Shown: in pieces, positions 10,033 through 31,144 of the stretch
Layout: every line of letters begins with the position of its first letter
Position numbering within the stretch: the first letter of the stretch is position 1
DNA from: an uncultured Acidobacteriota bacterium
Lineage (GTDB): Bacteria; Actinomycetota; Acidimicrobiia; Spongiisociales; ZC4RG35
Reading direction: 5' to 3'
Assembly (NCBI GenBank): GCA_963828465.1
Contig: CAWHEU010000025.1
Span: forward strand, 96,001 to 160,000
Length of the DNA: 64,000 nucleotides
Notes under the pieces: generated by a model
The model's input: only the letters and a program-made list of their open reading frames with translations
What the model was told of the DNA's origin: nothing
Database searches by the model: none
Made by a program: the position numbers and the translations under genes

Positions 10033-10105
10033 GCCCTCGTAGCTCAGGGGATAGAGCACCGGTTTCCTAAACCGGGTGTCGCAGGTTCGAATCCTGCCGA
10101 GGGCG
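10033..10105 (+). tRNA. tRNA-Arg (anticodon CCT)
   Basis: Full cloverleaf: acceptor GCCCTCG/CGAGGGC, D-arm GCTC/GAGC, anticodon stem CCGGT/ACCGG with loop TTCCTAA, T-arm GCAGG-TTCGAAT-CCTGC; CCA not encoded. Confidence 0.97.
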
Positions 10106-10206
10106 CCGAACCCCGGTTTGCCTTGTATTCATTGACTATCTGGCGCATACAGTCGATGTCTTCCGGCCCTGGTGAATCCCCGTGGCGCAGTTCGTAGAGT
10201 TCAACG

Positions 10207-10752
10207 ATGGCGTCAAATGAGCGACGCACCGCCGGTCTCCTCCTGGTCTCGGGGTTCGGATTTCTTATGGTCGCTGCTGTCCTGTTCACGGGAGGACCAG
10301 GCGGACCAGCCTTGCCTGAATGGCAGAGCCTTGCCCTTGGCTTGGGATTGGTCGTGACGTTGTTCGGTTTGGCCACATTCGAACTTGTCGTCCGTGACGC
10401 CGGAGAGCGCGTTCTGGGGCGACTGGGAACGATCGCTTTCCTTCTTGGGTGTGTTTCGTGGATCGTTGCGGATGCCGTCGCACTGGGCGGGCTGCCATGG
10501 ATATTCGAACTCGAACGGAACTACGTGGTGCTGGCCTGCTTTGCCCAGGTGGCCTTGGGCTGGGCAATTCTTCGCACCGAAGTCCTCCCCCGCTGGCTCG
10601 GTCGGGCAGCCATCGGGTGGAGCGTGGTCTGGGCTGCCCTCTACGTCAGCCGGATTGTGGAGGCGCCACTCCCTCTCAACCTGATCACTTTCCTTTTTGG
10701 CCTCTCGCTCCTCCGTCCCTGGCCATCCAGACCCCGGACGACGCAGGATTGA
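10207..10752 (+). CDS. Membrane protein (DUF4386-like), unit 1 cargo
   Basis: 181 aa, 5-6 TM helices, LGWAILRTEVLPRWLG motif. Confidence 0.7.
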   Translation: MASNERRTAGLLLVSGFGFLMVAAVLFTGGPGGPALPEWQSLALGLGLVVTLFGLATFELVVRDAGERVLGRLGTIAFLLGCVSWIVADAVALGGLPWIFELERNYVVLACFAQVALGWAILRTEVLPRWLGRAAIGWSVVWAALYVSRIVEAPLPLNLITFLFGLSLLRPWPSRPRTTQD

Positions 10753-10908
10753 ATAACGCGATCCGGCCTCACGCCCGATCTGGGGTAGATGGGCCAACCC
10801 GGGGCAGCCCATTTTCGAAATGGGGTCAACCATCCTTGGCCTGCCGGAGGTGTTTGGTTGTCCGGATCACCCCGACCAGACGGCCTCGGCGGCGTAAGGT
10901 GCGACAGG

Positions 10909-11987
10909 ATGGAGAATCGGGGATTTCTTCTGATCGCCGATATCACCGGATACACGGTTTACCTAAGCCAATCCGAACTCGCGGCATGCCCAGGGAACGC
11001 TCAGCCAGCTGCTTCGAGCTGCTGATCGAACACACCCGACCGCCGCTTCAGATATCGAGCCTGGAGGGAGATGCCGTCTTGAGCTACGCGGTCGGAGGCT
11101 GGCTTCGTCAGCGGCCAGACCTTCATCGAGAGTATCGAGAGCACTTACATCAGCTTCCGCAGAGCGATCGAGCTCATGGTTCTCAACAACACCTGTCGAT
11201 GTAACGCCTGTGCCAATGTCTCCTCACTCGACGTCAAGTTCCTCGTGCATAACGGGCCGTTCGTGATCCAACGCGTCGGCAACACGGCCCAGTTGTTGGG
11301 CAACGACATCAACCTCATCCACCGGCTGCTCAAGAACTCGGTGACGGCCGACACCGGAATTCGGGCCTATCTTCTCTGCACCGATGCGGCGATCAGAGTC
11401 CTGGGAATCGACCCGGCTTCTGAAGCCATGACCCGCCACCAGGAGACGGTCACCGATCTGGGAGACGTCTCCGTCTGGGTCAAGGACATGCACCCGGTGT
11501 ACCAGGCGAGGAGGGACGAGCGGCAGGTCACCTACACAGAGAAAGAGGTCTTGACCACTCTCGAAGCCGAGATCGCGATGCCGAGGGAACTGGTGTGGGA
11601 TTATCTCAACCAGTCCGAATTCCGCAACCTGGTGATCCAGTCCGACTCCTACGAGGTTCTCGACCGCGAGGCCGGCAAGGTCGGCCCCGGCAGCACGTAT
11701 CAGTGTTATCACGGGAAGATGGTCGTTCCTCAATTGGTCGTCGAGTGGCGGCCCTTCGAGCGGGTGCTGCTGAGCCAGCGACTTCCCTTCAAGGGGCGGC
11801 CCGTCCATGTGCTCATCGACTTCCGACTAACGCCGACCGAGGTTGGAACTCGGCTGACCGAGACCCGCCGCCCGGGTCTCCGGACCCGCGGCGAAACGCT
11901 TGTTCGCGCGGCTGTTCATCCGCAGCCAGCGCCAACGCAGCCAGCGCAGCCTCAACGACTTCCAGGACCAGATCCAGGGTGATCTAG
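10909..11987 (+). pseudogene. DUF2652 + SRPBCC protein, frameshifted (pseudogene or sequencing errors)
   Basis: MENRGFLLIADITGYTVYL, LEGDAVLSY, TCRCNAC, LLGNDINLIHRLLKN and a C-terminal SRPBCC domain spread over different frames. Confidence 0.75.
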
Positions 11988-12005
11988 CGGCTCATCAAGC
12001 CATCG

Positions 12006-12389
12006 CTAGCTCGGGAAACGGCTGAAGCCGGCCCGGTGGTTCGGTTCCACTCGGAGCAAGGCGTCGGCATTGGGCAGGTCACGCATGGTGGCGATGTAGT
12101 TCTCGGTCGGCTCGCCGTAGACCTCGAAGCCGATAGGTTCCAGGTAGTCGTAGGCAGTTCGGGCCCGGGCGACGGCGCCCTCCATGTGGGCGTCCATGGC
12201 GTCTGCATCGGCGAAAATGTGAACGATGCTGACCATTGTTCCCGCCTCGTTGGCGTAGAAGTTCTGGAAGACCGTTCTGGGCTTTTCCGCCTCGAGATCA
12301 GGCAGCACCTGGTCCACACTGCTCCACAACTCGCCCTCGCGCCCCTCCTTGATGTGAAAGTGGCTGATGTAGACAATTGGTCCAGACAT
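12006..12389 (-). CDS. Hypothetical protein, ABM/dimeric alpha-beta barrel-like
   Basis: IVYISHFHIKEG...SIVHIFADADAMDAHM...EVYGEP. Confidence 0.7.
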   Translation of the reverse strand: MSGPIVYISHFHIKEGREGELWSSVDQVLPDLEAEKPRTVFQNFYANEAGTMVSIVHIFADADAMDAHMEGAVARARTAYDYLEPIGFEVYGEPTENYIATMRDLPNADALLRVEPNHRAGFSRFPS

Positions 12390-12589
12390 GACTGCGAAGC
12401 TAGTGCGAGGGACCTCGAGCGCGTCCATGCACCGCTAGGCCCCAGATAGAAACTGAGCGGCTTCATTCCAATGAACCAGGTCAGGTCCTTCAGCTCACCG
12501 CGTCGGTGATTTGCCTAAACGGAGCGGTCAGTAAGACCACGAAATGAAGAACCAGGCCGTCCGGCCCTTCTGCTTCACAGGTTGCATCA

Positions 12590-12636
12590 GCGCGCCCGGG
12601 GCGACTCGAACACCCAACCTCCTGATCCGTAGATCT
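12590..12636 (-). repeat. 3' half of a tRNA-Arg(ACG) in inverted orientation (att-site remnant)
   Basis: Reverse complement gatctACGgatcaggaggttgggtgttcgagtcgccccgggcgcgc gives anticodon loop, T-arm (GGGTG-TTCGAGT-CGCCC) and acceptor 3' strand; no 5' half. Confidence 0.75.
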
Positions 12637-12846
12637 CCAAGCCCTGTCCATGTGTGTCCATGAGCGTCGGCAGAGCCAGAAGCAACGGCCATCGCTTCCA
12701 CCTGCATCCACGGCGGTCCTCGGCGATCCAGAGCGGATGGATCCCGACCATGACCGATTTCGAGATCATCGAAGCTGGGGTCGCCGCCCTGTATTCGGGC
12801 GACGCCGACACCCGTCAGTTTGCCCGTTATCGTCGGTCGTAGGGAG

Positions 12847-13320
12847 GTGCCTGTGATCGAGTATCAGGGTGAAACAATCATCGAACGCCCCGTGGATCAG
12901 GTGTTCGCCTACGCCGCCGCCTACAAGAACCTTCCTGAATGGTCTGATGTGTCTGACGTCGCCATGCTCACCGATGACCCGGTGGGTCAGGGCTCCCGGC
13001 TCAGGATGACGATGGGGAAGGGACCAATGCGAGCCACCCTCGACTTCGACATCGCCGCATGGGAGCCGAATCAGACCTGGAGCTACACAACTGTGCCTCC
13101 CGCCTGGATTCTTTGGGATGCCACGTATTCGGTGGAGCCGATCAGTCCCACCCCGACTCGAATCACCACTCACGGCCAGATCACGCTGAAAGGCTGGAGG
13201 CGCATCCTCGAGCCTCTGGTCCGCGGCGAAGTCGGCAAGAACGAGCAGCTCGAGCTCGACAAACTCAAGACAATCATCGAGCAACTGCCAAGCCCAGAAA
13301 CCGACGACCAAGGAAGCTAA
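12847..13320 (+). CDS. SRPBCC (polyketide cyclase-like) protein
   Basis: IERPVDQVFAYAAAYKNLPEW...DKLKTIIE; start approximate. Confidence 0.8.
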   Translation: MPVIEYQGETIIERPVDQVFAYAAAYKNLPEWSDVSDVAMLTDDPVGQGSRLRMTMGKGPMRATLDFDIAAWEPNQTWSYTTVPPAWILWDATYSVEPISPTPTRITTHGQITLKGWRRILEPLVRGEVGKNEQLELDKLKTIIEQLPSPETDDQGS

Positions 13321-13443
13321 AGGACGCTGCTCCGGCTTGGCTGTAACGTTTACCGACAAGGGTCGGGAGTCTGCTGAAAACGCGTCGTTGACACCTCGCG
13401 AGCTGGCGGACATTTGCGGACCGCCGGTCCAATCTCCCGTTCG

Positions 13444-13615
13444 AAATTGAGCACCGGAACGCGCCGACTCTAGAGAACGCGAAAAGCCTATGTTCATTGG
13501 GGATTTCGGGTGTTTAGAGGCCCGAATACAGAGCGTGTTTCCTAAACCGGGTGTCGCAGGTTCGAATCCTGCCGAGGGCACCGAACCCTTGCTTTCCCAT
13601 GGCCAGTCATTGACT
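13444..13615 (+). repeat. att-like junction copy 2 (left arm + tRNA-Arg 3' half + right box)
   Basis: ttgagcaccggaac...tgttcattgg...gtttcctaaaccgggtgtcgcaggttcgaatcctgccgagggc (13537-13579)...gtcattgact. Confidence 0.92.
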
Positions 13616-13707
13616 TTCGTGGGCTGGGCTTGTCGAGGGCAGCCACCGTTCAAGCGACGTGGCGCCTCACGTTGCGCTTACGTAACGGCTATGCGGCAAC
13701 CTGAGGG

Positions 13708-14959
13708 CATGAGGGAAAGCGCTGAGCGGCCGGCGAGCCCGACACATCCGACCGCGCCCATCGCACGCGGTGACCCTGGGAATGGTGTTCGGGCAACACC
13801 GAACCGGCCTTGGATCTGGGTGGCCGCTGCTCTCCTTCTCATCGTTGGCGTCTCATTCTTTCTCTACCTGCTGGCCGACTCCGACTATCGTGGGGAAGAG
13901 ACGCAATGGCCCTTGGGACTCGCCGCGCTCGTGTTCGTCGTGGTCGGCGCACTGTTGGTCGCCCTATGGACCGGCGGCCACCGGGTGGGCTGGATCCTTT
14001 CAGCCACCGGTCTTGCGTTGCTCATCAGCGGGGCAGCCGGGCTCCAGGCCGATGAGGGTGACCTGGTTGGCGAGGCCGTCGGTGGGGCGTGGCTGACGTG
14101 GTTCTTTCTGGTCGGCCTTCTCATGTATGGTTTCCGACCCGGGCATCCGGTGTCGCCTCGGTGGCGCTGGATCGCTTGGATGGGCGTCATCGGCGAGGGT
14201 TTCAGTCTCACCTATGTTGTTAGCGACCAACTGTGCGTCGAACACGGGGACGAAGCCTGTCTTGGCATGGGCGGACAACCCAATCGGCATCCAGAGCATG
14301 CCAAACCCGGAAAAACGGACCCTTGGCCGAATTGACCTTCCTGTTGATAGCTCTTTTTGCGATCTTGGCCGCGGTCTCTCAGGTGGTCCGGTACGTACGT
14401 TCCCGGGGGGTGGAGCGGCTCCAGATCAAGTGGTTCGCCTTCGCCGTCATCAGCGTCTTTGCGTTGATGTTGGTGGAAGGCGCCCTGCGAGATGTGCTCC
14501 CGCTCTCCCGACACTGGTCTGGGACCTACTCCTCGGCTCTGGCAGTTTCCGCACTGCCAGTCGCCATCGGCGCATCGGTGATGCGCTACGGGCTGTATGA
14601 GATCGATCGGATCATTTCTCGCACGGTACTCCTACGCGATCGTGATAGCCGTACTCGGATGGGTGTACCTAGCTGGCCTGACCGCACTCAGCTCACTGCT
14701 CCCTGCTGAATCGCCGCTGGCAGTGGCCGCCTCGACATTGGCGATAGCCGCATTGTTCAACCCCTTGCGCAAACGCGTCCAAGATTGGGTCGATCGCCGC
14801 TTCAATCGATCGCGCTTCGACGCCGAGCGGGTCATGACCCGGTTCGCCGAGTCCCTTCGGGATGAGGTCGATCCCGAGGCGGTCCTTGCTGGATGGGTCT
14901 CCGTGGTTTCGGAGACGATGCGCCCATCCACGAGCGCAGTGTGGGTTAGGGGCTCATGA
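13708..14959 (+). pseudogene. Multi-TM sensor-like membrane protein without output domain, frameshifted; sole cargo of unit 2
   Basis: Three overlapping frames give SPRWRW, RSRGVERLQIKWF, RYGLYEIDRIISRT, LFNPLRKRVQDWVDRRFNR. Confidence 0.7.
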
Positions 14960-15079
14960 AGGCGGTGCTCCCGTGGCTCCCGAGACGTCGAATCCGCTCA
15001 GATTCGATCAGTCAGCGGGGTTTCGCTCGTCGCGGTCGTCGAAAGATTTCTATCGGAATAGGCGCAAGCGGGAGATCAG

Positions 15080-15216
15080 ATTGAGCACCGGAACGTGCGA
15101 ACCTGATAGAGAACGCGAAAACCCCATGTTTATTGGCGTTTTCAGGTGTTTAGAGGCCCGAATACAGAGCAGGTTTCCTAAACCGGGTGTCGCAGGTTCG
15201 AATCCTGCCGAGGGCG
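15080..15216 (+). repeat. att-like junction copy 3
   Basis: Same left arm; tRNA 3' half identical at 15172-15216. Confidence 0.92.
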
Positions 15217-15236
15217 CACGATCCGGGGTAGCGATG

Positions 15237-16121
15237 TCAGCTAGCGGCAGCTACCACATCGAGAATCGCCTCAATGACGAGCTGGGGGTCTGCTTCTTCG
15301 ACCGCGTGCCCTGTGGTCACCACGATCTGCTTCGCACTGGGACTCAACACCAGCCAACCCTTCTGGTCCTCGACATTGGTCTGCTCGCCCGGAAACTCGG
15401 CATTGGGTCCATAGTCATTGGAGATGACCGTCACTGGGATGTCACCGATCTCCGTGCGCCCCGCCCAAGCATCCTTCTCTACCTGGAGGTAGTCCCGCTT
15501 CTCGATGTTGGACGGGCTGTCCCAGGCTGTCAGCTCGACGATCTCCTGCGGCGGGTCAACGAACGGGGATGGCGTCTCGACGAAGACCATGCCCGCCACC
15601 TCGTCGGGATGAGCGAACGCAAATCCAGCGGTGATGTAACCGCCCCCAGAAGTACCCACCAACACGTACGGCCCTTCGACATCAGCCGAATCGAGGAGAG
15701 CCTCGAGATCCCCCACTAGCTCCGACAGGCCGCGTGGTCCCTCAGCAGGATCGCTCCGGCCCAGATTCGCCCGGTCGTATACACAGGTTCGGGTCACGGC
15801 GGCGATATCGACCACGGCGAAGCCGTACGAGCTGCTGGTGTCTTCGTCGCCGCCCTCCATGATCACGGTCGGACTGCCCGACCCCCTGCAGCGGAGATAC
15901 AGGCTCCGCCCGCCGATGTCGACAACTTGGTCGATCTCCCCAACGGTGGATGCAGTCGACATCGTGGTAGACGCAACGGCGGTGATGTCCGGGGTAGAGA
16001 CGGGCTCTTCCGACGAAGACGAATCTGTGCCCTCCTCGGCTGAACAGCCGAGGGACACCAGAAGCGCGAGGCCTGCGAGGCCGAGCGCCGTTCTGCGTCG
16101 ATCGATGCCGGACGCCCTCAA
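15237..16121 (-). CDS. Secreted/lipoprotein alpha/beta hydrolase; sole cargo of unit 3
   Basis: Lipobox-like SLGC, CVYDRANLGRSD, GTSGGG nucleophile elbow, TGHAV. Confidence 0.85.
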   Translation of the reverse strand: MRASGIDRRRTALGLAGLALLVSLGCSAEEGTDSSSSEEPVSTPDITAVASTTMSTASTVGEIDQVVDIGGRSLYLRCRGSGSPTVIMEGGDEDTSSSYGFAVVDIAAVTRTCVYDRANLGRSDPAEGPRGLSELVGDLEALLDSADVEGPYVLVGTSGGGYITAGFAFAHPDEVAGMVFVETPSPFVDPPQEIVELTAWDSPSNIEKRDYLQVEKDAWAGRTEIGDIPVTVISNDYGPNAEFPGEQTNVEDQKGWLVLSPSAKQIVVTTGHAVEEADPQLVIEAILDVVAAAS

Positions 16122-16291
16122 GTCGCCCCAATCCGACCACGGATCGTCTGATTACTCCCCACCAAGATGTCCTCCCTTCACCCGCCCAGGACTGAACCCG
16201 AGTCCGACACCCGCATTCGCAGACGCAGACCGCAAGGTAACTACTAAAGCGCCGCAATGCCGCCTGACGAGTGCGCCTGGTCGTAGTGGAT

Positions 16292-16479
16292 GAGCGCAAC
16301 CGAAACTCCGCACCGGAACTGCCAGACCTGGAATACGCGAAAACCCTATGTTCCCCATGTTCATTGGCGTTTTCGGGTGTTCAGAGGCCCAAATACAAAG
16401 CAGGTTTCCTAAACCGGGTGTCGCAGGTTCGAATCCTGCCGAGGGCGCTGAGCGTGGTTTCCCCTCGTATTCATTGACT
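16292..16479 (+). repeat. att-like junction copy 4
   Basis: Left arm with a small internal duplication; tRNA 3' half at 16403-16447; tattcattgac at 16468. Confidence 0.92.
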
Positions 16480-16578
16480 TCTACGAGTGGGTCCTTGGGC
16501 TGGAGGGATATATCCCGTTGTGGATTCAGGGCGGAGCTTGGGCCGTCACGGCCACTGATCGCTGTGTTCTAATCGGCC

Positions 16579-17136
16579 ATGTCACAAAGGGCCAAAGGGT
16601 TGGCGGTGTCCTTGGGAGGTCTGACCTGGCTGGCGGGCGTTGCGATCCTGGAACTGACCTTCGACTCGTCGTCGGAAGACGACCTGCCGGTCATCTTTCT
16701 ATTGCTGGCAGTGTTTGCTGGCACGGCTGTTGGCTGGGGCTGTTGGAGCGCATCGCCGACTCTCGAACGCAGGCTGAGCCGAGTGGGCCTTAGGAGCGTG
16801 GCCGTGTGTTCGTTCGTCCTCGGGTTGGGGTTCGGATTGGCCTTCGTCCCGGACATGTTCCTGGCGTTCCTGCTCTCGTACAGCATCGGTTTGTTTCTTC
16901 TACCCGTGGCGTTCTTGGTGTTCGGCTTAGGGATTGCCAAGTCGACGGTCTATCCAGGATGGGCGAAATGGCTTCCATTCGTGGTCTTCGCTGTCGCCTT
17001 GATCACATATGGTTTTCACGCCCTGGCGCGCAATGTCTGGGACCCGAGTGACGCTGTTTGGTATACGGCGCTAGGTCTCGGATGGGTAGTCCTCGGGGCC
17101 GCTATCGCCTCCTTCCGAATTCCGAGCCGCGTGTAA
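16579..17136 (+). CDS. Membrane protein (DUF4386-like), unit 4 cargo
   Basis: 185 aa, about 6 TM helices, FGLGIAKSTVYPGWAKW. Confidence 0.7.
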   Translation: MSQRAKGLAVSLGGLTWLAGVAILELTFDSSSEDDLPVIFLLLAVFAGTAVGWGCWSASPTLERRLSRVGLRSVAVCSFVLGLGFGLAFVPDMFLAFLLSYSIGLFLLPVAFLVFGLGIAKSTVYPGWAKWLPFVVFAVALITYGFHALARNVWDPSDAVWYTALGLGWVVLGAAIASFRIPSRV

Positions 17137-17403
17137 GCCAAGGCTCCGATTCAGCGACTACCTACGCGAGATGACACAGCAGCACTCCAGTTGATAAGCG
17201 AAAAGGTCGATGTCGACTGCTAACGCCATTCCATTAGCTCGCTCTCACCTTGTGACCTCTCAGCTCGTGAGCCACCAGCAGATAACGGTCGCAGACGCAT
17301 TTCGGAACAGAGCACGAGATGCCTTCAATGTGCTCTCGGCGGGGATGCCCGCAGTGGTCACAACGCGCCTTTGAAGGGTTCCGTGAAGGGTTTCGTCGTT
17401 CCA

Positions 17404-17787
17404 CTATGAGAGGGTCTGGGACTGTTGGAGGCGTTCGAGATGGTCGCGGTCACGTTGCGTCCGCCGCCTTCTCGACCGGTAGAAAAGGCCGAACAACTCG
17501 GCGAAGACGACGCCGATGAGAATTGCGCCAAGGATGAGGACGATCAAAGGGGTCGAGAAGTCCCATGCCGTGAAGGTCACAGTGATGCTGGCTGTGTTCT
17601 GTGCGGCCAGGATCAGGACACCAATCGCCAACACCACCCCGATGATGAGCCCCCAGAAGAGGCCCGTGCCGACAAAGACCCGCTCTTTGGTTGCCGGTTG
17701 AGCGGTTGTCGAGGGTTCGGCTGTTGCGTCAGATATCAAGACAGTCCGATCACTCACTTCGCTTGAGATCGTGTTCGGCTGGCTCAT
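17404..17787 (-). CDS. LapA/DUF1049 family membrane protein
   Basis: LAAQNTASITVTFTAWDFSTPLIVLIL followed by a basic tail. Confidence 0.8.
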   Translation of the reverse strand: MSQPNTISSEVSDRTVLISDATAEPSTTAQPATKERVFVGTGLFWGLIIGVVLAIGVLILAAQNTASITVTFTAWDFSTPLIVLILGAILIGVVFAELFGLFYRSRRRRTQRDRDHLERLQQSQTLS

Positions 17788-18057
17788 TTCGACCGCGACG
17801 CGATAGGCGGCGGTGGGGTGGGTGACATCGTTATCGGCACAGGGACAAGACGATCAACCCCGATCGGCCACGGTCGTCGATACACGATTTCGGCGAGACG
17901 GGTTTTGAATGTCAACTCGAATCTGTTCCCGGTAAGGGCCACAACAAAGCTCCTTCGTTTGCGATCTACTTGAGAGATTACTTGCAATCTAACTATATGT
18001 CAAATAAGATGCCTGGCCAACACCTGACACACAAGTCCTGAAGGGAGCGCGTAGCGA

Positions 18058-18588
18058 ATGGACGATCGTATTGACAGCATCATTCGGGAGTGGCATGAAC
18101 GTCGGCCCGACCTCGACTTCTCGCCTCTCGAAATCGTGGCTCGAGTGATACGCGCCTCGCACTTCCTTCAAGACAGATTGGACCGGATCGCTGAGGCTTA
18201 CGGTCTGAGCCATACCGGCGACCTCGACGTTCTCACCGATCTCGACCGGGCCGGCCCGCCCCATCAGCGAACACCCTCAGAGCTGGCCGAGACCCTCCTC
18301 CTCACCACGGGAGGCATGACCGTCCGTCTCAACCGTCTGCAAAAGGCCGGGCTCGTCGAACGGCTCCCCAACCCTCGAGACGGCCGAGGTGTCCTAGTGC
18401 GTCTCACCCCGATCGGAAAGGAACTGGCCGAAGATGCCCTGGCCACGCTCCTCGACACCCAAGCGGCCAGCCTTGGAACACTCCAACACTCAGAACAGAT
18501 CGACCTGGCCACCCTGCTCCGAACCCTCCTCACAGCTCTCGGCGACACCCCGGCATTCCGACCCGCCATCGCAGTGCAACGCGGATGA
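18058..18588 (+). CDS. MarR family regulator (TamR/PecS-like)
   Basis: DSIIREWHERRPDLD...TPSELA...GGMTVRLNRL...DGRGVLVRLT. Confidence 0.9.
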   Translation: MDDRIDSIIREWHERRPDLDFSPLEIVARVIRASHFLQDRLDRIAEAYGLSHTGDLDVLTDLDRAGPPHQRTPSELAETLLLTTGGMTVRLNRLQKAGLVERLPNPRDGRGVLVRLTPIGKELAEDALATLLDTQAASLGTLQHSEQIDLATLLRTLLTALGDTPAFRPAIAVQRG

Positions 18589-18633
18589 GCTGAACACGGT
18601 CAAACGACAAAGGCCCCCCGTCGGAATGTCCTC

Positions 18634-18762: not shown

Positions 18763-18852
18763 TTCTGGGGCTGACCTTTGTCAAGGATTCTTGGGGCTGG
18801 TCTCGGCGCTTGGCGGCGCATCATGCGTTAAGAGTCGAGCGGTAGGTTCACC

Positions 18853-22429: not shown

Positions 22430-22741
22430 CGATCTCCCGTCCCTGTGAACCCGAAGCTAGGTGAGTGCAGAACGTATGCCTGGCCGAACGCCCAAATAGA
22501 TTTCGCGGACCCGACGCGCCTCAACCTGCCGAGTGTTCCGACCCACCCCGATCGCTCAGCCCTACCCATATCGGGTAGAACCGGTGACCGGCAAGTGCTA
22601 GGACGATCCTGTTGACCAGCTTCATGGCTCTAGGTCGTCCGCCATGACGGAAGCATTCCAGAGAATGCGTCATCTATCACCAGATAGGCTGCCACCGACC
22701 AAGGTGCGGGGCCGAGGTTGTTACCCAGAAGGGAGATTGGC

Positions 22742-23092
22742 ATGCTGCCTATAACCCGCAAACACCTAGCTGACGCCGAAGAGACCATGACCTTCAAGCA
22801 TGGCAAGTCCATTCTCGTCCGCTTCGGCGACGAGGAGGTTTGGCGCTCCGAGCTGGAGCCCGGCTGGAACTGGGACGAAGATCTGGAGCCATACGCGGAA
22901 GGGGCGACAAGCTGCCCGCTCACCCACCGCGAGCTGGTGATCTCGGGCACCATCCGATATCTCATGGAGGACGACACCGAGGTGGTTGCATCCGAAGGCG
23001 ATGCCTTATTCATCCCACCCGGACATCGGGCCTGGGTTGTGGGAGATGAGACCTGTGTCCTCATCGACTGGCAGACTGAGCCAAGCTTCTGA
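22742..23092 (+). CDS. Cupin domain protein
   Basis: LEPGWNW...SCPLTH...FIPPGHRAWVVGDE. Confidence 0.85.
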   Translation: MLPITRKHLADAEETMTFKHGKSILVRFGDEEVWRSELEPGWNWDEDLEPYAEGATSCPLTHRELVISGTIRYLMEDDTEVVASEGDALFIPPGHRAWVVGDETCVLIDWQTEPSF

Positions 23093-23310
23093 CTCCAAAG
23101 AGCCGCATGGTGCTACCTCCTCCAAGAGCGGTGGGGTGCGCTATGCAGACATCGGCCTTGTCGAGCTCAAAGGCCTCGCCGACGCCATTCACCTCCACTC
23201 CGCACATCGGAGGTGACCACAGGGTGTCGACACCGGCAGTGCATGCGTTCAGGAAGGAGGCGCGGTCCGCGACCACACGTGAGTCGACGGGCCGGTAGTA
23301 CGGTCGAGCG

Positions 23311-23859
23311 GTGAGCGCCAATCGATTCGTGGCATTGCTTCGCGGTATAAACGTCGGTGGCCGCAACTTGATCTCGATGGCGGACCTACAGGACGCCTTC
23401 ACCGCCGAGGGATACCGCGATGCCAGGACCTACATCCAGTCGGGCAACGTCCTATTCGAGTCGGACACAGCCCGAGGCTCGCTCGAGGAAGAACTCGAGG
23501 CAATGCTCCAACGTCGGCTCGGCGTCGAGTTGGTTGTAGTCGTTCGATCACATCTTCAATTGCGCAACCTCGTCGCCAAGTCGCCAAAAGGGTTTGGAGA
23601 CGAGCCCAACCTCTATCACTCGGACGTGATCTTCCTCAAATCTCCTCTCACCCCGCATAGGGCGATGCGAGTGGTCAAGGTCCGGGACGGTGTCGACCAG
23701 GTATGGCCGGGGACTGGTGTCCTCTATTTCGCTCGTTTGAGCGCACGACGAACCCAGACCAAGATGGGCAGCATCGTCGGCACGCCGGAGTACAAGCTGA
23801 TGACGATCCGAAGTTGGAGTACGACAACCAGGCTGCTCGGTCTCTTCGATGAGCAATAG
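23311..23859 (+). CDS. DUF1697 family protein
   Basis: VALLRGINVGG, TYIQSGNV, TIRSWST. Confidence 0.9.
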   Translation: MSANRFVALLRGINVGGRNLISMADLQDAFTAEGYRDARTYIQSGNVLFESDTARGSLEEELEAMLQRRLGVELVVVVRSHLQLRNLVAKSPKGFGDEPNLYHSDVIFLKSPLTPHRAMRVVKVRDGVDQVWPGTGVLYFARLSARRTQTKMGSIVGTPEYKLMTIRSWSTTTRLLGLFDEQ

Positions 23860-24264
23860 ACGCGGGACGAGCCTCTCTCGAGCACATTTAGGCATCTAAG
23901 AGCGCCTCGTTGACCCGTTGATGGGGTTGGTCGGGGTCAGCGGCGCCGGCGTCCGCGGAGGGTAGCGAACGAGACCGCCCCGAGCGCGTAGCGCTCAACA
24001 ACACTGGAGGGGTGTTTCGGGGCCCCGGTAGCTGGAGCGAAATGAGTACACCTAAACGGGATCGAGAGATGTCCCGGAATCGGGTTTCGCACCGCTTGGT
24101 TTATCGAGTGGTCGGACCTCGCCAGCGTTGAAACCCCCAGCGAACTCACGTACGGCGAGGAAGAGTAAGAAGGTCCTTCGGGGCTGCTCTCATACATGCC
24201 ACCTCGCGGGAGGCTGGGAGTAGGGTCGAATGAGGCAACACGCGGAGCCTTGGAGGTGTTCGAG

Positions 24265-25122
24265 ATGGTGACCGATACACCGAGTCCGGTCAACATTGAG
24301 GAAGGCGAACAGATTGCCGAGGCCAACTCGTCGGGCCGCCAACCAGTTGTATTCATTCACGGTCTCTGGTTGTTGGCTTCGAGTTGGGATCGGTGGGCTT
24401 CGATGTTCAAGGATGCCGGCTATGCGCCCCTCACACCGATTTGGCCCGACGATCCGGAAACCGTGGAAGAGGCCCGAGCGCATCCCGACCTCCTCGCCAA
24501 CAAGACCTTGAAGCAGGTCGCCGACCACACCACGGAGATCATCGATGCCTTGGACCAGAAACCTGCGCTTGTGGGTCACTCCACCGGGGGCCTGCTGGCA
24601 GAGATGCTCGCGGGCCAGGGCCTCTCAGCGGCCACAGTCGCGATCGATCCGGGGGTCTTCCGCGGCGTCCTACCCCTGCCAGGCTCCGTGCTCAAGGGGG
24701 TGGGCCTCCTCCTGATCAACCCGCTCAACCGCGGTCGCGCGATCACGCTCACGTTCAACCAGTTCAAGTACGGCTGGGCGAACGCGTTAGATGACAGAGA
24801 AGCGAAGGAGCTCTACGACACATTCCACGTCGCCGGATCGGGGATATCTCTCGCCCAGATGGGCAACGCCAATCTCAATCCTTGGACAGAGTCCAAAGTG
24901 AACACGAAGTACCCCGACCGCGGCCCCCTACTGATCATCGATGGCGAGAAGGACCACACAGTGCCGTGGGCGATCGCGAACGCCGCCTATATGCGACAGA
25001 TGCGCAACCCCGGCGTGACCGAGATCGTGAAGATCCCCCATCGGGGGCACTCACTGACCATCGATCATGGCTGGCGCGAAGTAGCAGACAGGGCGCTCAA
25101 CTTCGTCAAGCGATTCGTCTAA
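24265..25122 (+). CDS. Alpha/beta hydrolase
   Basis: VVFIHGLW, GHSTGG, DHTVP, RGHSLTID; start approximate. Confidence 0.88.
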   Translation: MVTDTPSPVNIEEGEQIAEANSSGRQPVVFIHGLWLLASSWDRWASMFKDAGYAPLTPIWPDDPETVEEARAHPDLLANKTLKQVADHTTEIIDALDQKPALVGHSTGGLLAEMLAGQGLSAATVAIDPGVFRGVLPLPGSVLKGVGLLLINPLNRGRAITLTFNQFKYGWANALDDREAKELYDTFHVAGSGISLAQMGNANLNPWTESKVNTKYPDRGPLLIIDGEKDHTVPWAIANAAYMRQMRNPGVTEIVKIPHRGHSLTIDHGWREVADRALNFVKRFV

Positions 25123-25277
25123 CCGCACGCCAAACTTGCAGGGAGACGAGAACGCCTTCGAACCGGCGCGCAGGTCGGATGCGTGGGGTTCTCGCCTCTC
25201 CTTTTGGTAAGGCGCGAAGTTGCTATCCCACATCTAGGTCGGAACCGCCCGGCGACCCATCGTCAGGTGAGCGAAGA

Positions 25278-25910
25278 TCAGGGCTCGGTTGTTGCCTCTG
25301 CAACGTCGGGAACCAGGCCCTTTATGTCGTCGTAGCCCACCTCGGCGGGCTTGGCCGTCGGAGCGTATGTCAGCCAGATCACTCCAGTAGGGAATACCTC
25401 GGACCGAGTCAAGCTCAGGTGGTACGGGGTGTCACCGTCATTGAACAGGTGTCTGCCGCTACGGGCAGCCACCGGGTGGACCAACAGGCTGAGCTCGTCG
25501 ACCAAGCCGGCGGCCAGGAGTTGCTGGACAATCGAGATCGAGCCCGGGATGAGGATCCGGCCCACCGACGGTTCGGCCTTGAGGGCCGCCACCGCCGCGA
25601 CTAGGTCGCCGTCGAGCACCTCTGAGTTGCGCCAGGTGAACTCGAGGGGCTGGCGGGACACCACGATCTTTCGCTGGTCGCCAAGGGACTTGGCAAACGG
25701 CGCATCGACCTCGCCGGCGGTCTCCCTTTCGGGCCATGCACCGGCAAAGCTGTCGTACGTGATCCGACCAAGCAGCAAGACGTCGACTGCCTCATAGTCG
25801 TGGTCGACGGCCCGACCCATGTTGTCGTCGAAGTAAGGGAAGTGCCAGGACTCGTCGATCTCGGCCACACCGTCGAGGCTGATGAACAGGGTGGACACGA
25901 CAGTTCCCAT
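25278..25910 (-). CDS. Dihydrofolate reductase/RibD C-terminal family protein
   Basis: FISLDGV, LLGRITY, GLVDELSLLVHPVAARSGRHLF. Confidence 0.88.
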   Translation of the reverse strand: MGTVVSTLFISLDGVAEIDESWHFPYFDDNMGRAVDHDYEAVDVLLLGRITYDSFAGAWPERETAGEVDAPFAKSLGDQRKIVVSRQPLEFTWRNSEVLDGDLVAAVAALKAEPSVGRILIPGSISIVQQLLAAGLVDELSLLVHPVAARSGRHLFNDGDTPYHLSLTRSEVFPTGVIWLTYAPTAKPAEVGYDDIKGLVPDVAEATTEP

Positions 25911-26116
25911 CTCAGACAGGGAACCTATCACCGGGGTGCGGAAAGAAGGGCACGATGTCAGTCAGGCGACGGCGCGACGGGTCAGTTCGATAAGGCCGTG
26001 TGGGAATTCACGGCGTTGGAGGACGCGTCGAGTCATTCCACGGGCAGCAGCCAGGGCGATCTCGTTATCAACGAACCTCGGCTCGGTGCACTCGTAGTCG
26101 GTGCCCCTCCAACGCA

Positions 26117-26478
26117 CGGACACCTCAGAGGACTGGAAACTCTCCTCGCCCACGACGTGGAACTGACCGGCGACGGCGGAGGCAAGGTTCAGCCCTCGCC
26201 CACTCGTTGCGGGGACCAAGCCGCGTCGCCGCCGTGCTGGCAAAGGCGGTCCACACGATCGTCGGACTCCCGGGCGCCTCGTGGCGCCCAGTCGACGTCA
26301 ACGGCGGCGGCTCAGGAGCCCTCTTCCTCGACGGCCAAGGGAAGCTGATCGGCGTGCGGCACTCGACATCGCCGGCAGCCAGATCACAAACATCCAAGGC
26401 ATCGTCAACCCCGACAAGGTGGCCCACCTCGGACCGGTCGCCGACCTCAACTCGCTACTGGAGTCCGATCGCCGGTAA
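26117..26478 (+). pseudogene. Remnant of an ECF41/SigJ-type sigma factor C-terminal SnoaL domain
   Basis: GLETLLAHDVELTGDGGGK, VDVNGG and IVNPDKVAHL found in three frames; no N-terminus. Confidence 0.7.
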
Positions 26479-27377
26479 TGAGTCGATCGACATCAGCCGT
26501 ACGTCGAGACCGCGGGCGAGCCCAGGCCGAAGCCCACGTCATCGTCGACTCGATGCGTGCGGGCGGTTGGTCTCGTCCGCGGATCGCGGCGTGTAGAGAA
26601 AAAGCCCGCCCTCCGACGCGTCGACACCGCGAGTAGGTACTATTGGAGGTGAGGAGAAGCCTCCGTCCTCGAGTCAGGACCCCGCCCTTCGATGGATCGC
26701 CTCCCTGGTTGCACCTAGGTGATCGGAAGCTGCTTGCGGCTTCGAAGGAGCGGGACAGTGTCTGGATTCGTCAGCAGGCCGAAAGGCCCATGTCTCCATA
26801 CAGAGATGCCCACGTCTCGTCTCGACCAACTCATGGTCATCGCCCGGTTCCGGGAACTCGGATTCACCCAGAGACGGTGTGAAGGCTGTACCTGGTGTTG
26901 GGCGGTCTGGGACGATGCCGAGGGCAACCGGATCCGGTCATTCCGAAGCGTCGGGCGAATAGCTGGCGTCGATTATGCGTGAAGATCCCTCGCCCTGTTT
27001 CCCCCAAACGCCCTTCCCCGCCCGGGAGAAAGGGAACCCGCCGAGCGCCCCCTGGCGTCATCCTTGCGCGACCGCGCTCGGCGGTTCTCTGCGCCCAGAC
27101 CTCCACCTTCCACGATCGATTGAATGACCCGCAGGCTCGGGTAAGGCGACCCTCGGAAATGGGCAGCAGACGGGGTCTGAGGGACCCCGATCACGGTTCT
27201 CCGGGATGGTCGCCACCACAACCGCCGGACAGAAATTCTACGTACGCGAACCGGGAAATCCCGAACACGCTCGCCCTCAATCGAGGATGATTGTCCAGGG
27301 CTTGGTTCTCGGTTCGTGCGGTTTTGGGAGGCCGTCCTCGAGGGTATGTGACCTTAGCGACCCTCGATAGGAGTGGC

Positions 27378-27744
27378 CATGGCATTCAGTGTTCGATACA
27401 TCGTTGATGACGTCGACGAAGCGATTCGATTTTACGGCGAGAACTTGGGGTTTGAGGTCGACATGAACCCCGCACCCGGGTTTGCTGCCCTCAGCAAGGA
27501 TGATCTGCGCTTGTATCTGAATGCACCCGGTGCGGGGAGCGCCGGGGCTGCTGGTGGCAGCCCAGAACCCGGAGGTTGGAACCGATTCCAACTCACGGTC
27601 GACGACCTCGACAAGAGCATCAATGACCTTCGTGGTTCCGGAGCCAGATTTCGGGGCGACATAGCGGAGGGAGCTGGCGGGCGCCAGATCTTGCTCGAGG
27701 ATCCTTCGGGCAACCTGGTCGAATTGTTCGAGCCGAAGAGCTGA
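27378..27744 (+). CDS. VOC/glyoxalase family protein
   Basis: VRYIVDDVDEAIRFY...GGWNRFQL...EDPSGNLVELFEP. Confidence 0.9.
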
Positions 27745-27857
27745 GGCTCAACACCCCTTGGTCGGAGCGACGTCTAGCGCATGGAGCGCCACGCTGCCAA
27801 GCAGCGGTCGTCCCACAGGATCTCGCCGCCGCTGTCTGCGATTCGTCGTTGAGGCGC

Positions 27858-28205
27858 GGCTTGCTCAGGGTGCGGCCGAGCTTGGCGATCTCGACCAGCG
27901 GCCTGGGGACGCCGGCCGATTGATTTCTCACAAGAGCGACAGCTCACAACACGCTATTTTGGGGGCACCCCAAAGCTGAGGAGAGCCCCGTGGGCAGGAA
28001 GAGCGCCTCTTCACAATGCAGGGTGTAGTCGGGGTGTGAATCCGCCTGTCTCGAGTAGGGATCGGGCGATGTAGTTGGTGAGGTTGCGGAAGCCGAGGGC
28101 GGAGCCCCGCAGGTGCTCTATGCGGCCGCTGATCGCTTCGGTTGGACCTTTGCTGGTGCCGGGCGGGTCGAAGTAGGCGAGTACGTCAGCGGCTCGCTTA
28201 CTCAG
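27858..28205 (-). mobile_element. ISL3-family transposase C-terminal remnants and IS end
   Basis: LSKRAADVLAYFDPPGTSKGPTEAISGRIEHLRGSALGFRNLTNYIARSLLETGG (28205-28011) and GVPRPLVEIAKLGRTLSK (~27915-27858); GCCTCTTC end resembles ISL3 GGCTCTTC. Confidence 0.8.
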
Positions 28206-29170
28206 TTGATCCGTCGCCGGACCCAATAGATGGTGGCGACGATGAGCCCGACGGCGAGGGCGACGAAGATCGCCGTTTCGATGGCTTGGAATGCCCAGAA
28301 CTGGCCGAAGGGGTGGATGGTGAGCACCTCGGCAGAGGCAGTGTCCACCTCCGAGCCGGCGGAGACGATCCAGTCGCCGCCGAGGTCGTTGCGCATCTGC
28401 GGTATATCGGGCCCGAAGGCGATGTTCTCGAGTACACGTGTCTCTGTCGGCATGTAGCGAGTACGTGCCGCCAGCATCACGAGCAGTCGGGTTCCGAGGA
28501 AGCCGACGACGGTCGTCGCCATCGCGGGAAGCATTCGGCCGGTGACGGCGCCGGCGAAGACGCCCAGCGCAAGCGCGAAGAGGGCGTATCCGAAGACGAC
28601 GATGCCGTGCATGTCGAAGAAGATGTAGGTGAACCGCGAGCCCGACGTCTGCATCGCTGGCGTGATCCACCACGTGAGCATCCCGGCGTATATCGCGGTC
28701 ATGACCAGTACGGCGAGGGAGACAAGCCCGATCTTGGTTGCCGCCCAGCGAAGCCGCGAGACGCCCTGTGTCCACACCAGTCGGTGAGTGCCGTGTTCGA
28801 TCTCACGGGCGACGAGGGAAGCCCCCCAGAACATGCCGGCGAATATCGGCAGGGTCAACAGCAGCAGTCCGACGAATACGGCGTTCGGATACTCGCCGAA
28901 GAAGTCGCGTGCCGACTGGGCGCAGCGGCCGACCGCCAGGTCATCCTCGTCTACCGCCCGCGCACCCTCGACGCCTTGGCGGTCGAGTGCATCGGTATCG
29001 ATGACGACCGGCGCGGCCATGGCCTCGGGCAGGCAGTCGGGCAGGCCCAGCTCCTCGAACCGGTCGTGCATTGGCATGCCTGTGCCGACGAAGAAGGCAC
29101 CGAGGACGAGCAGGGCAGCCACACCGAAGAAGAGTTGCTTGCGATGTTGGCGCCACACGAGCCAGGTCAT
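28202..29170 (-). CDS. ABC-2 type transporter permease
   Basis: MTWLVWRQHR, REIEHGTHRLVWTQGVSRLRW, FWAFQAIET. Confidence 0.88.
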   Translation of the reverse strand: MTWLVWRQHRKQLFFGVAALLVLGAFFVGTGMPMHDRFEELGLPDCLPEAMAAPVVIDTDALDRQGVEGARAVDEDDLAVGRCAQSARDFFGEYPNAVFVGLLLLTLPIFAGMFWGASLVAREIEHGTHRLVWTQGVSRLRWAATKIGLVSLAVLVMTAIYAGMLTWWITPAMQTSGSRFTYIFFDMHGIVVFGYALFALALGVFAGAVTGRMLPAMATTVVGFLGTRLLVMLAARTRYMPTETRVLENIAFGPDIPQMRNDLGGDWIVSAGSEVDTASAEVLTIHPFGQFWAFQAIETAIFVALAVGLIVATIYWVRRRIN

Positions 29171-30051
29171 GCGCTCAGATCCTGGTGGTCGGCCATTATC
29201 TCGCCGTTGGCCGCCAGGTAGGCGAGGACGAGGTCTTCGAGGGTGACGTCGCGTGGCTCCCAGGCGGGTTCGAGGGCTTGTGCGTTGGTTCGGACGAGGA
29301 GCGTGCTCTGTCGTTGCCCGTCGGTGGCGTGGACGACCTCTTCGACCCCGGCGATCGTGGCGCGACGTGGCCCCCCTGGGCCGATCAGGATCTTGTGGGT
29401 GGCCAGCAACTGGTCGGTCTCGGCGAAGACCTGGACGCGTCCGGCTTGAAGCACCAGGAGGTGGTCGCAGACCCGCTCCAGATCGGTGATGAGATGGGAC
29501 GACAAGACCACGGTCGTTGGCGTCTCGGCAACGGCGTCGACCATGGCGGAGAGGAATTCCCGGCGGGCGAGTGGGTCGAGGCTGGCGAGGGGTTCATCGA
29601 GGAGCAGCAGCCGTGGCCGCTTGGCGAGCGCGAGGCACAACGCCACTTGGGCGCGTTGGCCGCCCGATAGCTGGTCGACGCGCCGGTCGAGGGGCACTCC
29701 GACTTTGGGCAGGCGTTCCCGGCCGAACGCAACGTCAAAGTCGCGGTTGAGCTTGTCGCCCATCGTGAGCAGCTCGTCGGCGGTGAAGTCCTCGTACAGC
29801 GGCGCGTCCTGGGCAACGAAACCGACACCGGGCAATGTCCGGTCTCCCGGTTCTCCGCCGAGCACCCGGATCGTGCCCGCGGACGGTCGGGTCAGCCCGG
29901 TGACGCAATGAAGCAGGGTCGTCTTGCCGGCCCCATTGGGACCGACGAGAGCAACGATCGCCCCTGGAGGGATCGCAAAGCTGCAGTGGTCGAGCGCCAA
30001 CGTCCGTCGGTAGCGCTTAGTGATGCCGTCTGCGACGAGCGCGCCGCTCAC
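29167..30051 (-). CDS. ABC transporter ATP-binding protein
   Basis: GPNGAGKT, LSGGQ, LLLDEP, SSH. Confidence 0.92.
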   Translation of the reverse strand: MSGALVADGITKRYRRTLALDHCSFAIPPGAIVALVGPNGAGKTTLLHCVTGLTRPSAGTIRVLGGEPGDRTLPGVGFVAQDAPLYEDFTADELLTMGDKLNRDFDVAFGRERLPKVGVPLDRRVDQLSGGQRAQVALCLALAKRPRLLLLDEPLASLDPLARREFLSAMVDAVAETPTTVVLSSHLITDLERVCDHLLVLQAGRVQVFAETDQLLATHKILIGPGGPRRATIAGVEEVVHATDGQRQSTLLVRTNAQALEPAWEPRDVTLEDLVLAYLAANGEIMADHQDLSA

Positions 30052-30443
30052 GCCGAGTCCTTCATGTCGAGCAACCGGTGGAGCGTGGTGTCCACGACCG
30101 CCCTGATGTGCTCGGGCGACAGTCCTGCAGCGCGTGCCTGGCCCACCCAAGCCTCCAAGCGCACTCGCAGCCCATCGAGGGTCCCTGGTGACGGTCCCGC
30201 CAGCGAGCCCACTACATAGGTGCCCTGCCCGTGCCTTCCCTCCACCAGTTGTTCGTACTCGAGCTGGCGGTAGGCCTTGAGCACCGTGTTGGGGTTGATG
30301 ACCAGGGCCGCTGCTACCTCGCGGACCGTCGGCAGCCGGTCACCCGGCTCGAGTCGGCCAAGGCGCAGGGCCTGTCTCACCTGCTCGGCGATCTGAAGGT
30401 AAGTCGGCACACCCGATGTGGAGCTGAGGTGAAAGGCGAGCAT
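30048..30443 (-). CDS. GntR (YtrA subfamily) regulator
   Basis: VPTYLQI...LPTVRE...INPNTVLKAY...GQGTYV; heads the ABC operon. Confidence 0.92.
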   Translation of the reverse strand: MLAFHLSSTSGVPTYLQIAEQVRQALRLGRLEPGDRLPTVREVAAALVINPNTVLKAYRQLEYEQLVEGRHGQGTYVVGSLAGPSPGTLDGLRVRLEAWVGQARAAGLSPEHIRAVVDTTLHRLLDMKDSA

Positions 30444-30561
30444 TGTCGGAGTGTACTACAACACTAAGACAAGCCACTAGTCCACTGCGCCTAAACGGTG
30501 AGCCGGCAGATGGCCACGCCGGGCTGTTTGATCGAGCGGGGCGACGGGAAACAAGTCAGAG

Positions 30562-31059
30562 ATGCAGACGAGGGACGTCACCGACATCCTGAAGAAGCCG
30601 ATCAGCCAAGAGATGCTCAACCGGGACATCGTCCGATTGGCGTACGTCGCCACGGACGGCACTCCGAGGGTCGTCCCGATCGGGTTCACCTGGAATGGCT
30701 CCGAGGTCGTCATGTGCACGCCGACGAACGCTCCGAAGCTGGTGTCGTTGCGCCAGAACCCGGCAGTCGCCCTGACCATCGACACCGAGGTCCACCCACC
30801 GAAAATCCTGCTGATCCGGGGCGACGCGGTGCTCGACGAGGTCGAGGGAATTCCTGATGAGTATCTCCAGGCGAGCGGCACCTACAAGATGACGCCGGAG
30901 CAGCGAGTTGAGTGGGAGACCGAGATCCGGTCGTTGTACGACTCAATGGTCCGGATCGTCGTAAAGCCGACGTGGGCGAAGCTGATCGACTTCGACGAGA
31001 CACTTCCAACCCCGGTCGAGCAGCTGGTTCGCCTCCGGGAAGAGCGGGAGCAGGCCTAG
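30562..31059 (+). CDS. Pyridoxamine 5'-phosphate oxidase-like (split barrel flavin/F420-binding) protein
   Basis: RLAYVATDGTPRVVPIGF...KLVSLRQNPAVALTID. Confidence 0.85.
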   Translation: MQTRDVTDILKKPISQEMLNRDIVRLAYVATDGTPRVVPIGFTWNGSEVVMCTPTNAPKLVSLRQNPAVALTIDTEVHPPKILLIRGDAVLDEVEGIPDEYLQASGTYKMTPEQRVEWETEIRSLYDSMVRIVVKPTWAKLIDFDETLPTPVEQLVRLREEREQA

Positions 31060-31098
31060 CCGCTGCCCACCTCGTCACACCGTCGCGCCTGACAACGG

Positions 31099-31144
31099 AC
31101 ACAGAGCAGGTTTCTAAGCCCGGGCGTCGCAGGTTCGAATCCTG
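31099..31144 (+). repeat. Degenerate att-like junction copy 7
   Basis: acacagagcaggtttctaagcccgggcgtcgcaggttcgaatcctg keeps the arm end (acagagcagg) and T-arm; acceptor strand lost. Confidence 0.8.

Follow-up and report, generated by a model that had tools for sequence, protein, structure and literature searches.

The 64,000-nucleotide (nt) stretch analyzed here, called the window throughout, comes from a metagenome-assembled genome (MAG) of a soil member of the Acidimicrobiia (genome G000, contig C25:96001-160000) and holds a tandem array of small gene cassettes behind its single transfer RNA gene, tRNA-Arg(CCT). The cassettes are separated by conserved sites of about 140 nt, each made of a left arm and a copy of the tRNA 3′ end; no recombinase gene is linked to the array, and arrays with shared and reshuffled cassettes are found in other genomes of the genus. 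We favor the reading, with a probability of roughly 0.55, that these cassettes resemble cis-mobilizable elements (CIMEs) and are recombined at attP-like sites by an integrase of the lambda/VWB type acting in trans; neither this integrase nor any circular form was detected. All of the genomes compared are MAGs, comprising a genus search set of 31 genomes (one of them, G027, unpublished) and a comparison set of 30 genomes from other genera. Genes were called with a home-made codon-score caller, and therefore starts of open reading frames (ORFs) close to the sites are approximate.

The tRNA gene lies at 10033-10107 (+) and is one of four tRNA-Arg genes in G000, one each for ACG, TCT, CCT and CCG. 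Its 3′ ~45 nt are repeated five times in direct orientation, with a further degenerate copy at 31096-31144. A 24-nt stretch from the T-arm region was found six times with up to three mismatches (at 10074, 13549, 15185, 16416, 19465 and 31122), exact in the copies at 13549, 15185, 16416 and 19465 and with two mismatches at 31122, and gave zero matches in 100 dinucleotide shuffles. The repeat finder also recovers the copy at 18688, from which 1 nt is deleted, giving seven direct copies in all with spacings of 3475, 1636, 1231, 2284, 765 and 11657. The unit sizes and the core positions (13537, 15173, 16404, 18688 and about 19453) agree with an earlier account of this locus, the original prediction, which had described a repeated tRNA 3′ end of ~44 bp. 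The recurrence holds, but the length does not: since copies 1-5 share a ~96-nt left arm ahead of the tRNA core, the repeat is ~140 nt.

This left arm is not present upstream of tRNA-Arg(CCT) itself. An alignment of 37 sites from 10 genomes has a mean column identity of 81% across ~140 nt, with unrelated flanks, and within any array every site is oriented like its tRNA. A right arm of ~40-85 nt follows the core in only a subset of sites. Identity to the tRNA begins at the anticodon stem-loop, the classic crossover position of tRNA-targeting integrases. The core corresponds to the annotated attP cores of the Streptomyces phages VWB (93% identity) and RP3 (87.5%), which bears out the suggestion that it is a tyrosine-integrase target. 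The left arm starts with TGAGCACCGG, which matches the 9-10 nt ahead of the anticodon loop in the tRNA. Of 45 full sites, five have GAGCAC in the right flank at +76 to +78 and six have it anywhere in that flank (mean of 2.4 in shuffles, 0 on the opposite strand), and TTCATTG is found in left and right arms. TGAGCACCGG/GAGCAC and TTCATTG are possible protein-binding repeats of the arm type.

We also considered whether the site resembles an integron attC site or a structured RNA, and rejected both. RNAalifold on the 37 sites gave a covariation term of +0.25 kcal/mol, which is no support, and the sole robust helix is the T-arm of the tRNA; thus, the site is neither attC-like nor a structured RNA. 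An Rfam scan of 9500-32000 (E≤1) returned the tRNA alone and two chance matches under their gathering scores, so that the site belongs to no known RNA family. The left arm of site c3 carries an internal 9-nt tandem duplication that is absent from the other 36 aligned sites.

A site profile of 147 positions, constructed from 31 copies, was used to locate the sites. The window contains the following features.

8820-9977 (-): gene with NYN and OST-HTH domains (Pfam) in the upstream flank, outside the array and syntenic in relatives
10033-10107 (+): intact tRNA-Arg(CCT) (Rfam tRNA, 69 bits), the proximal attachment (att) site of the array and the sole CCT tRNA-Arg in the genome
10108-10150 (+): right arm (P′-like, with TTCATTG), directly 3′ of the tRNA; recurs after c1 (partly), c3 and c4
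10151-13438 (mixed strands): unit 1, with an ORF of four transmembrane (TM) segments at 10207-10752 (+), DUF2652/AHSA1 at 11176-11982 (+), an unknown ORF at 12006-12428 (-) and SRPBCC (Polyketide_cyc2) at 12820-13320 (+)
13439-13581 (+): site c1, left arm and core (nhmmer E 1.4e-44)
13582-15075: unit 2, with two low-scoring ORFs at 13490-14335 (three TM-like segments) and 14597-14959
15076-15217 (+): site c2 (nhmmer E 1.2e-45)
15218-16298 (-): unit 3, with an alpha/beta hydrolase at 15237-16121 (-)
16299-16448 (+): site c3 (nhmmer E 7.2e-43)
16449-18585: unit 4, with a 7-TM ORF at 16579-17136 (+), a LapA-domain protein at 17404-17787 (-) and MarR at 18058-18588 (+)
18586-18731 (+): site c4 (E 9.8e-36), 5′ third of the arm diverged, core with a 1-nt deletion
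18732-19353 (+): unit 5, with a lone cupin gene at 18853-19248
19354-19497 (+): site c5 (nhmmer E 3.4e-48)
19498-31095: unit 6, 11.6 kb with 11 ORFs, including a GAF-cyclase at 19568-21565 and PNPOx at 30562-31059; other cargo comprises cupin, DUF1697, hydrolase, RibD_C, glyoxalase and an ABC-2 transporter pair
31096-31144 (+): site c6, degenerate and distal (E 3.6e-10), last ~12 nt of the arm and a diverged core
33608-34612 (+): CN-hydrolase in the conserved distal flank, the same distal flank as in the G029_C17 and G012_C15 arrays (named here by genome and contig)

The cargo that had been predicted was found, with multi-TM ORFs, DUF2652/AHSA1, SRPBCC, hydrolase, LapA, MarR and cupin genes, and none of the 30 ORFs in a Pfam scan of 6713-35483 belongs to a recombinase, transposase or replication family, as also anticipated. 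No internal site was detected within unit 6 (19498-31095), and c6 is the oldest junction of the array. The G+C content is 0.57-0.62 in the array against 0.62-0.68 in the upstream flank, and this flank is 80-95% identical to those of G029_C8, G012_C14/15, G006_C5, G008_C43 and G019_C15. A segment of unit 1 (10163-10770) is present twice in the G029_C17 array.

A BLAST search with the site against the whole of G000 revealed three further full sites and fragments on contig C26, downstream of tRNA-Arg(CCG) (C26:107121-107192). This stretch (C26:90444-107192, L003; 16.7 kb) ends in a direct repeat of the tRNA-Arg(CCG) 3′ end at C26:90444-90477, has no recombinase, and carries a beta-lactamase-fold protein, CAAX proteases, an ECF sigma factor, an MFS transporter, a histidine kinase, an aminotransferase and PadR. 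The distal end, which G026 has in conserved form as well, consists of a CCT-type arm and the first ~17 nt of the core, followed by a different ~150-nt arm and a CCG 3′ fragment, and looks like two nested old junctions with different arms. The proposed insertion is not confined to tRNA-Arg(CCT), since CCT-type sites also lie in the array behind tRNA-Arg(CCG).

Next, we explored the distribution of the site. Of the 31 genus genomes, 15 yield matches that contain the arm; none of the 30 genomes of other genera does so, and there the tRNA portion alone matches. The exact 23-nt pattern across the arm-core junction was found at 20 loci of the species-representative collection, all in MAGs of the same genus set (labeled Acidimicrobiia or, in some records, Acidobacteriota), and in 8 metagenome contigs. 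Contigs from public soil metagenomes hold pieces of the window locus; run shares were under 0.5, and we limit any statement on habitat to soil metagenomes holding such parts. Seventeen array stretches were retrieved from 13 genomes, in which the profile finds 68 sites or partial sites, tRNAs counted. The 48 units mapped measure 464-17,974 bp (median 2,293 bp) and hold a median of two genes on either strand; both strands are used in 23 of the 46 gene-bearing units, and cassettes bring their own regulators (MarR, PadR, ECF sigma). In two further members of the genus, G005 and G025, the arm found in the arrays is diverged.

The array of G029 is split over two contigs (C8 and C17) that both end inside it, one with the tRNA and five sites and the other with five sites and the CN-hydrolase distal flank seen in the window; in total it extends over 70 kb or more and includes no fewer than 10 sites. 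Contig C17 (L037-L039) contains an 8.7-kb segment duplicated at 98.8% identity (array coordinates 6664-15320 and 34266-42924), including an ORF of ~2,820 amino acids (aa), and a further 4.0-kb segment duplicated at 97.3%. One copy has a site precisely at its start, and the other lacks one there. Outside the genus, in another family of the same order, G057:C20 (L083, 3813-11736) holds a 7.8-kb integrase-less unit flanked by two CCT cores, with glycosyltransferases and glycoside hydrolases as cargo and a PIN-domain gene just outside.

Comparison of the arrays reveals that relatives differ at the sites in how many units they hold, in which order and with what content; the original prediction had put this forward as a test, and the outcome favors it. 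The GAF-cyclase cassette, which is unit 6 in the window, adjoins the tRNA in G012_C15, as a cassette of its own, and in G019_C15. The hydrolase cassette of unit 3 is unit 2 in G012_C15 (91.8% identity over 1.4 kb), with a different left neighbor. The LapA/MarR pair occurs in six array stretches (the window and five others), a cassette with SDR and hydrolase genes also recurs in differing contexts, and CAAX-protease, beta-lactamase-fold and ECF-sigma cassettes are common to arrays of the CCT locus and the array of the CCG locus. Over its 3′ part the cyclase gene has 92.5% identity to the G019 copy, against 81.2% for the conserved upstream flank, a difference in sequence identity that points to transfer of cassettes between species. 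Genome G012 carries two versions of the whole tRNA-Arg(CCT) locus (C14 and C15, L040-L042), with flanks 94% identical and different cassette sets; thus, this bin mixes two related organisms (stated contamination 8%).

Among pairs of the 45 full sites, each taken with 200-nt flanks, 23 share the left flank only, three the right flank only and four both, so homology between arrays stops at the sites. In two informative pairs the similarity switches inside or next to the core: G003_C10 and G029_C8 have a left flank of 0.99, an arm of 1.00 and a right flank of 0.61, and window c2 and G012_C15 have a left flank of 0.58, an arm of 0.77 and a right flank of 0.98. These two pairs therefore indicate that the arm travels with the tRNA-proximal cassette, as tandem insertion of the form P(arm)-core-P′ predicts. 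A wider test of arm similarity with the left cassette followed the expected trend (0.87 against a background of 0.79), but with only three right-only pairs it does not separate site-specific from homologous exchange. Two joints in metagenomes are hints only. They were drawn from short Logan contigs, with joints of less than 30 nt on either side disregarded and uncovered parts of the stretch not counted as evidence. One (10143 to 19554, side 64) connects the right arm of the tRNA to the cyclase cassette, as in G012_C15, and a weak one (18585 to 19361, side 43, depth 3) omits the cupin unit 5.

We then searched for the recombinase. A six-frame search gave no PF00589 match (E≤0.001) within any examined array stretch. 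G000 has only two tyrosine recombinase genes, one XerD-like (C10; NCBIfam XerD and generic tyrosine-recombinase models) and one XerC-like (C18; XerC model), and in G019, G020, G026 and G030 a third PF00589 match is weak or fragmentary. Across the 31 genus genomes, a PF00589 match shares a contig with a site or core just six times. Xer-like genes account for five of these (G001:C69, G006:C7, G015:C4, G023:C2 and G029:C26), at least 290 kb from the nearest site in four cases and at 16 kb in G001:C69. The sixth, the integrase of G003:C12, lies beside tRNA-Thr(TGT), 47 kb from the array, and was set aside as unrelated. In the five genomes scanned for them, HTH_17 (Xis-type) and FtsK-type genes are absent from the array contigs, and none of the 48 mapped units gave a signal for an integrase gene (int), an int fragment, Xis, FtsK/Tra or Rep.

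Two other candidates were discarded. An orphan HTH_17 gene of G000 (C20:14456-14665, L088:8456-8665) has no recombinase beside it and is unlinked to the arrays; this excisionase-type gene encodes 69 aa, lies among unknown ORFs and a gene for a multi-HTH protein, and has no counterpart at that score in the other four genomes. The second, weighed as a possible hidden recombinase, is a large ORF that some relatives have upstream of the tRNA and that G000 lacks. It encodes a multi-TM protein whose C-terminus is lipase-like, and its N-terminus stems in part from an overlap with the NYN gene introduced by ORF calling. G000 also contains two near-identical 28-bp dif-like palindromic sites (C18:16673-16700 and C19:3462-3489); the latter is on a 5-kb contig and could therefore reflect either a variant strain or a small element that depends on Xer.

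We read the array at tRNA-Arg(CCT) as a tandem of integrase-less cassettes, each made of cargo and att arms, with each attP-like junction combining the ~96-nt P arm of the tRNA-proximal cassette, the ~45-nt core and sometimes the P′ arm of the next cassette. Recombination at the sites would lead to gain, loss and re-ordering of cassettes, and to their exchange between species of one soil Acidimicrobiia genus. The likeliest catalyst would be a heterobivalent tyrosine integrase of the lambda/VWB type, which would cross over in the anticodon loop and act in trans from an element that is missing from these assemblies. The data show the anatomy of the sites, the structure of the arrays, the sharing and shuffling of cassettes and the lack of a linked recombinase; we infer the helper integrase and its identity, the circular intermediates, and the site-specific rather than homologous nature of the exchange.

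Several observations weigh against this proposal. The trans-acting integrase that the original prediction called for was not found in G000 and none is tied to the sites on array contigs of the genus; G000, G029 and G008 (92%, 88% and 98% complete) have XerC-/XerD-like genes only, and there are no serine recombinases in G000, G029, G012, G003 or G019. Viral contigs gave no matches for two arm patterns. All 8 metagenome contigs (their ORFs compared by blastp with array proteins only) and all 20 collection loci with the site are array fragments, and the circular units that had been expected did not appear, with terminal overlaps in none of the 8 contigs. The right arm is recognizable in only roughly one third of sites, and many units may therefore lack what a competent attP circle needs. 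The CCT-type sites within the tRNA-Arg(CCG) locus are unaccounted for by simple insertion at a tRNA. Because every genome is a MAG, the order of units rests on assembly across 140-nt repeats. Finally, RecA-dependent exchange would likewise be expected to fall in a 55-nt stretch that is perfectly identical, and therefore the breakpoints do not tell the mechanisms apart.

The last point leads to the alternative that we take most seriously, a possible but distinctly less probable one, in which the sites are relics of an extinct or absent element and homologous recombination alone between the ~140-nt repeats shuffles and duplicates the cassettes and swaps them between strains, after transformation or other transfer. 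The invariant 55-nt stretch is enough homology for this, no integrase lies in or near any array, three array-rich genomes have Xer genes only, right arms are often absent, and the large recent duplications in G029_C17 (8.7 and 4.0 kb) include one that does not start at a site. Against it, the ~96-nt arm is ~80% identical between unrelated cassettes in species whose flank genes differ by up to 20%, which suggests that the arm is constrained by protein binding. Single-gene units with complete arms are hard to produce by homologous recombination only, and the strict co-orientation and position-fixed arm motifs fit a recombination site. A resident enzyme, either host XerC/XerD or an unrecognized recombinase, could instead make the arrays a self-contained chromosomal platform for gene capture. 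The XerC-/XerD-like genes are indeed the sole tyrosine recombinases of G000, G029 and G008, the arrays persist and vary genus-wide without a linked integrase gene, and Xer-dependent integrase-less modules are known elsewhere; however, the core is of the tRNA anticodon-loop type with long arms, as used by lambda-type integrases, and appears not to be 11-6-11 dif-like. By eye, the dif-like site of G000 at C18:16673 looks different from it. We regard a resident enzyme as quite unlikely. The broader claim of a new kind of chromosomal gene-capture platform, with cassettes of cargo and a 140-270-bp attP with a tRNA 3′-end core stocked at two tRNA-Arg loci and traded among species of the genus by XerC/XerD or an unrecognized resident enzyme and not by a visiting integrase from a phage or an integrative and conjugative element (ICE), is doubtful.

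Nor do we give much credence to the idea that each unit is a separate deletion remnant of a larger int-bearing island or prophage, left by serial integration and decay. An int-bearing element on the same core does exist in the order: in G038, of another family, an integrase related to VWB Int is encoded 1.4 kb left of a CCT core, and on contig C227 (L103, 1-2709) this gene and two small opposite-strand ORFs are on the left of a tRNA-Arg(CCT) core at a contig end. By definition CIMEs arise in this way (PMC5704250), and Prochlorococcus islands contain degenerated elements and scattered partial tRNAs (10.1101/2020.12.28.424599). Yet in its arm the G038 element does not resemble the arrays, the 48 units are free of mobility-gene signals, units of 0.5-1.1 kb retain full arms, and the same small cassettes are intact in several genomes. 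Misassembly around a repeated tRNA fragment is very improbable. It would suit the use of MAGs, the mixed G012 bin and the contigs that break at cores (G003 C10/C12, G029 C8/C17); multi-site arrays were nevertheless recovered from 10 or more separate MAGs, as well as from metagenome contigs of other records, with unique cargo between the sites and consistently shared flanks and cassettes.

To our knowledge, integrons are the only well-studied store of single-gene cassettes in arrays bounded by recombination sites, and they are rare in Actinobacteria. If helper-driven recombination at these sites is correct, a tRNA-targeting integrase system would have converged on an integron-like architecture, with many small, integrase-less, exchangeable cassettes and a long conserved att arm across an uncultured soil genus. 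It would explain the circulation of hydrolase, sensor, regulator and transporter genes in soil Acidimicrobiia, and the ~140-nt site would be a concrete substrate for tracing the helper recombinase. Lists of mobile elements built from integrase genes would overlook such arrays. Even if homologous recombination alone is responsible, the arrays would represent portable homology that organizes a flexible genomic island. In the literature searched, which was limited in coverage, there was no account of such arrays in Acidimicrobiia.

As in integrons and clusters of attC sites without an integrase (CALINs), the array is a row of short cassettes that each end in a conserved recombination site, and content and order vary among relatives. 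The difference lies in the absence of intI, attI and the cassette promoter Pc, in sites of a tRNA-derived, double-strand att type with no conserved hairpin or covariation, and in genes on both strands that include their own regulators. Three defining features of integrons were tested and none was found: no PF00589 match lies on the array contigs of G000, where intI would stand beside the array; the 37 sites folded with RNAalifold are not attC hairpins; and half of the gene-bearing units have mixed strands instead of promoterless, co-oriented cassettes under Pc. The array is therefore not an integron, and of the analogy drawn in the original prediction the architecture survives and the defining features do not. 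Functionally, the array can be likened to a CALIN-type cassette store on tRNA att sites. Xer-dependent modules, such as integrative mobile elements exploiting Xer (IMEX) and the pdif modules of Acinetobacter, are integrase-less and moved by a host enzyme at 28-bp dif-like sites; they share with the array the lack of an integrase between repeated sites, whereas here the sites are tRNA-derived with long arms.

The attP sites of VWB and RP3, which integrate at tRNA-Arg(AGG), have a core spanning the anticodon loop to the 3′ end, as the core from tRNA-Arg(CCT) does here, and the array core is likewise identical to its tRNA over that span, as in attP sites of the lambda/VWB type. Candidate repeats that might serve as arm-type sites lie at fixed positions, with a right arm in only a subset of sites. 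In VWB, int is on the left-arm side of the core and is followed by a long, repeat-rich P arm. Beyond the core nothing is similar save a short ACTGAG-like motif, and the array has no phage genes or int. Prochlorococcus tycheposons (10.1101/2020.12.28.424599) and the tRNA-linked islands that hold them also grow at tRNA genes with partial tRNA copies as borders; newcomers push older elements distally, and the cargo is niche-adaptive. Each tycheposon encodes a tyrosine or large serine recombinase of its own, often together with genes for replication, whereas the units here have neither but share a long conserved arm. Without an element-borne recombinase, the array is not a tycheposon.

CIMEs with tandem accretion at tRNA or other att sites, described for the ICESt1/St3 family (PMC5704250), are att-bounded, follow one another at the 3′ end of their target gene and have no integration or transfer genes, and they are presumed to be mobilized by the integrase of a related element. 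The array likewise has att-bounded units starting from the tRNA 3′ end, element arms at every junction, and units without integrase and transfer genes of their own. CIMEs are usually one or two decayed remnants of ICEs or integrative and mobilizable elements beside a functional element, whereas the arrays here hold from 5 to at least 10 small cassettes (median of two genes) with a conserved 96-nt arm, shuffled across the genus, with no mobility-gene remnant and no partner element found in the genomes. The CIME with tandem accretion (PMC5704250) is the closest named concept, here taken to an extreme.

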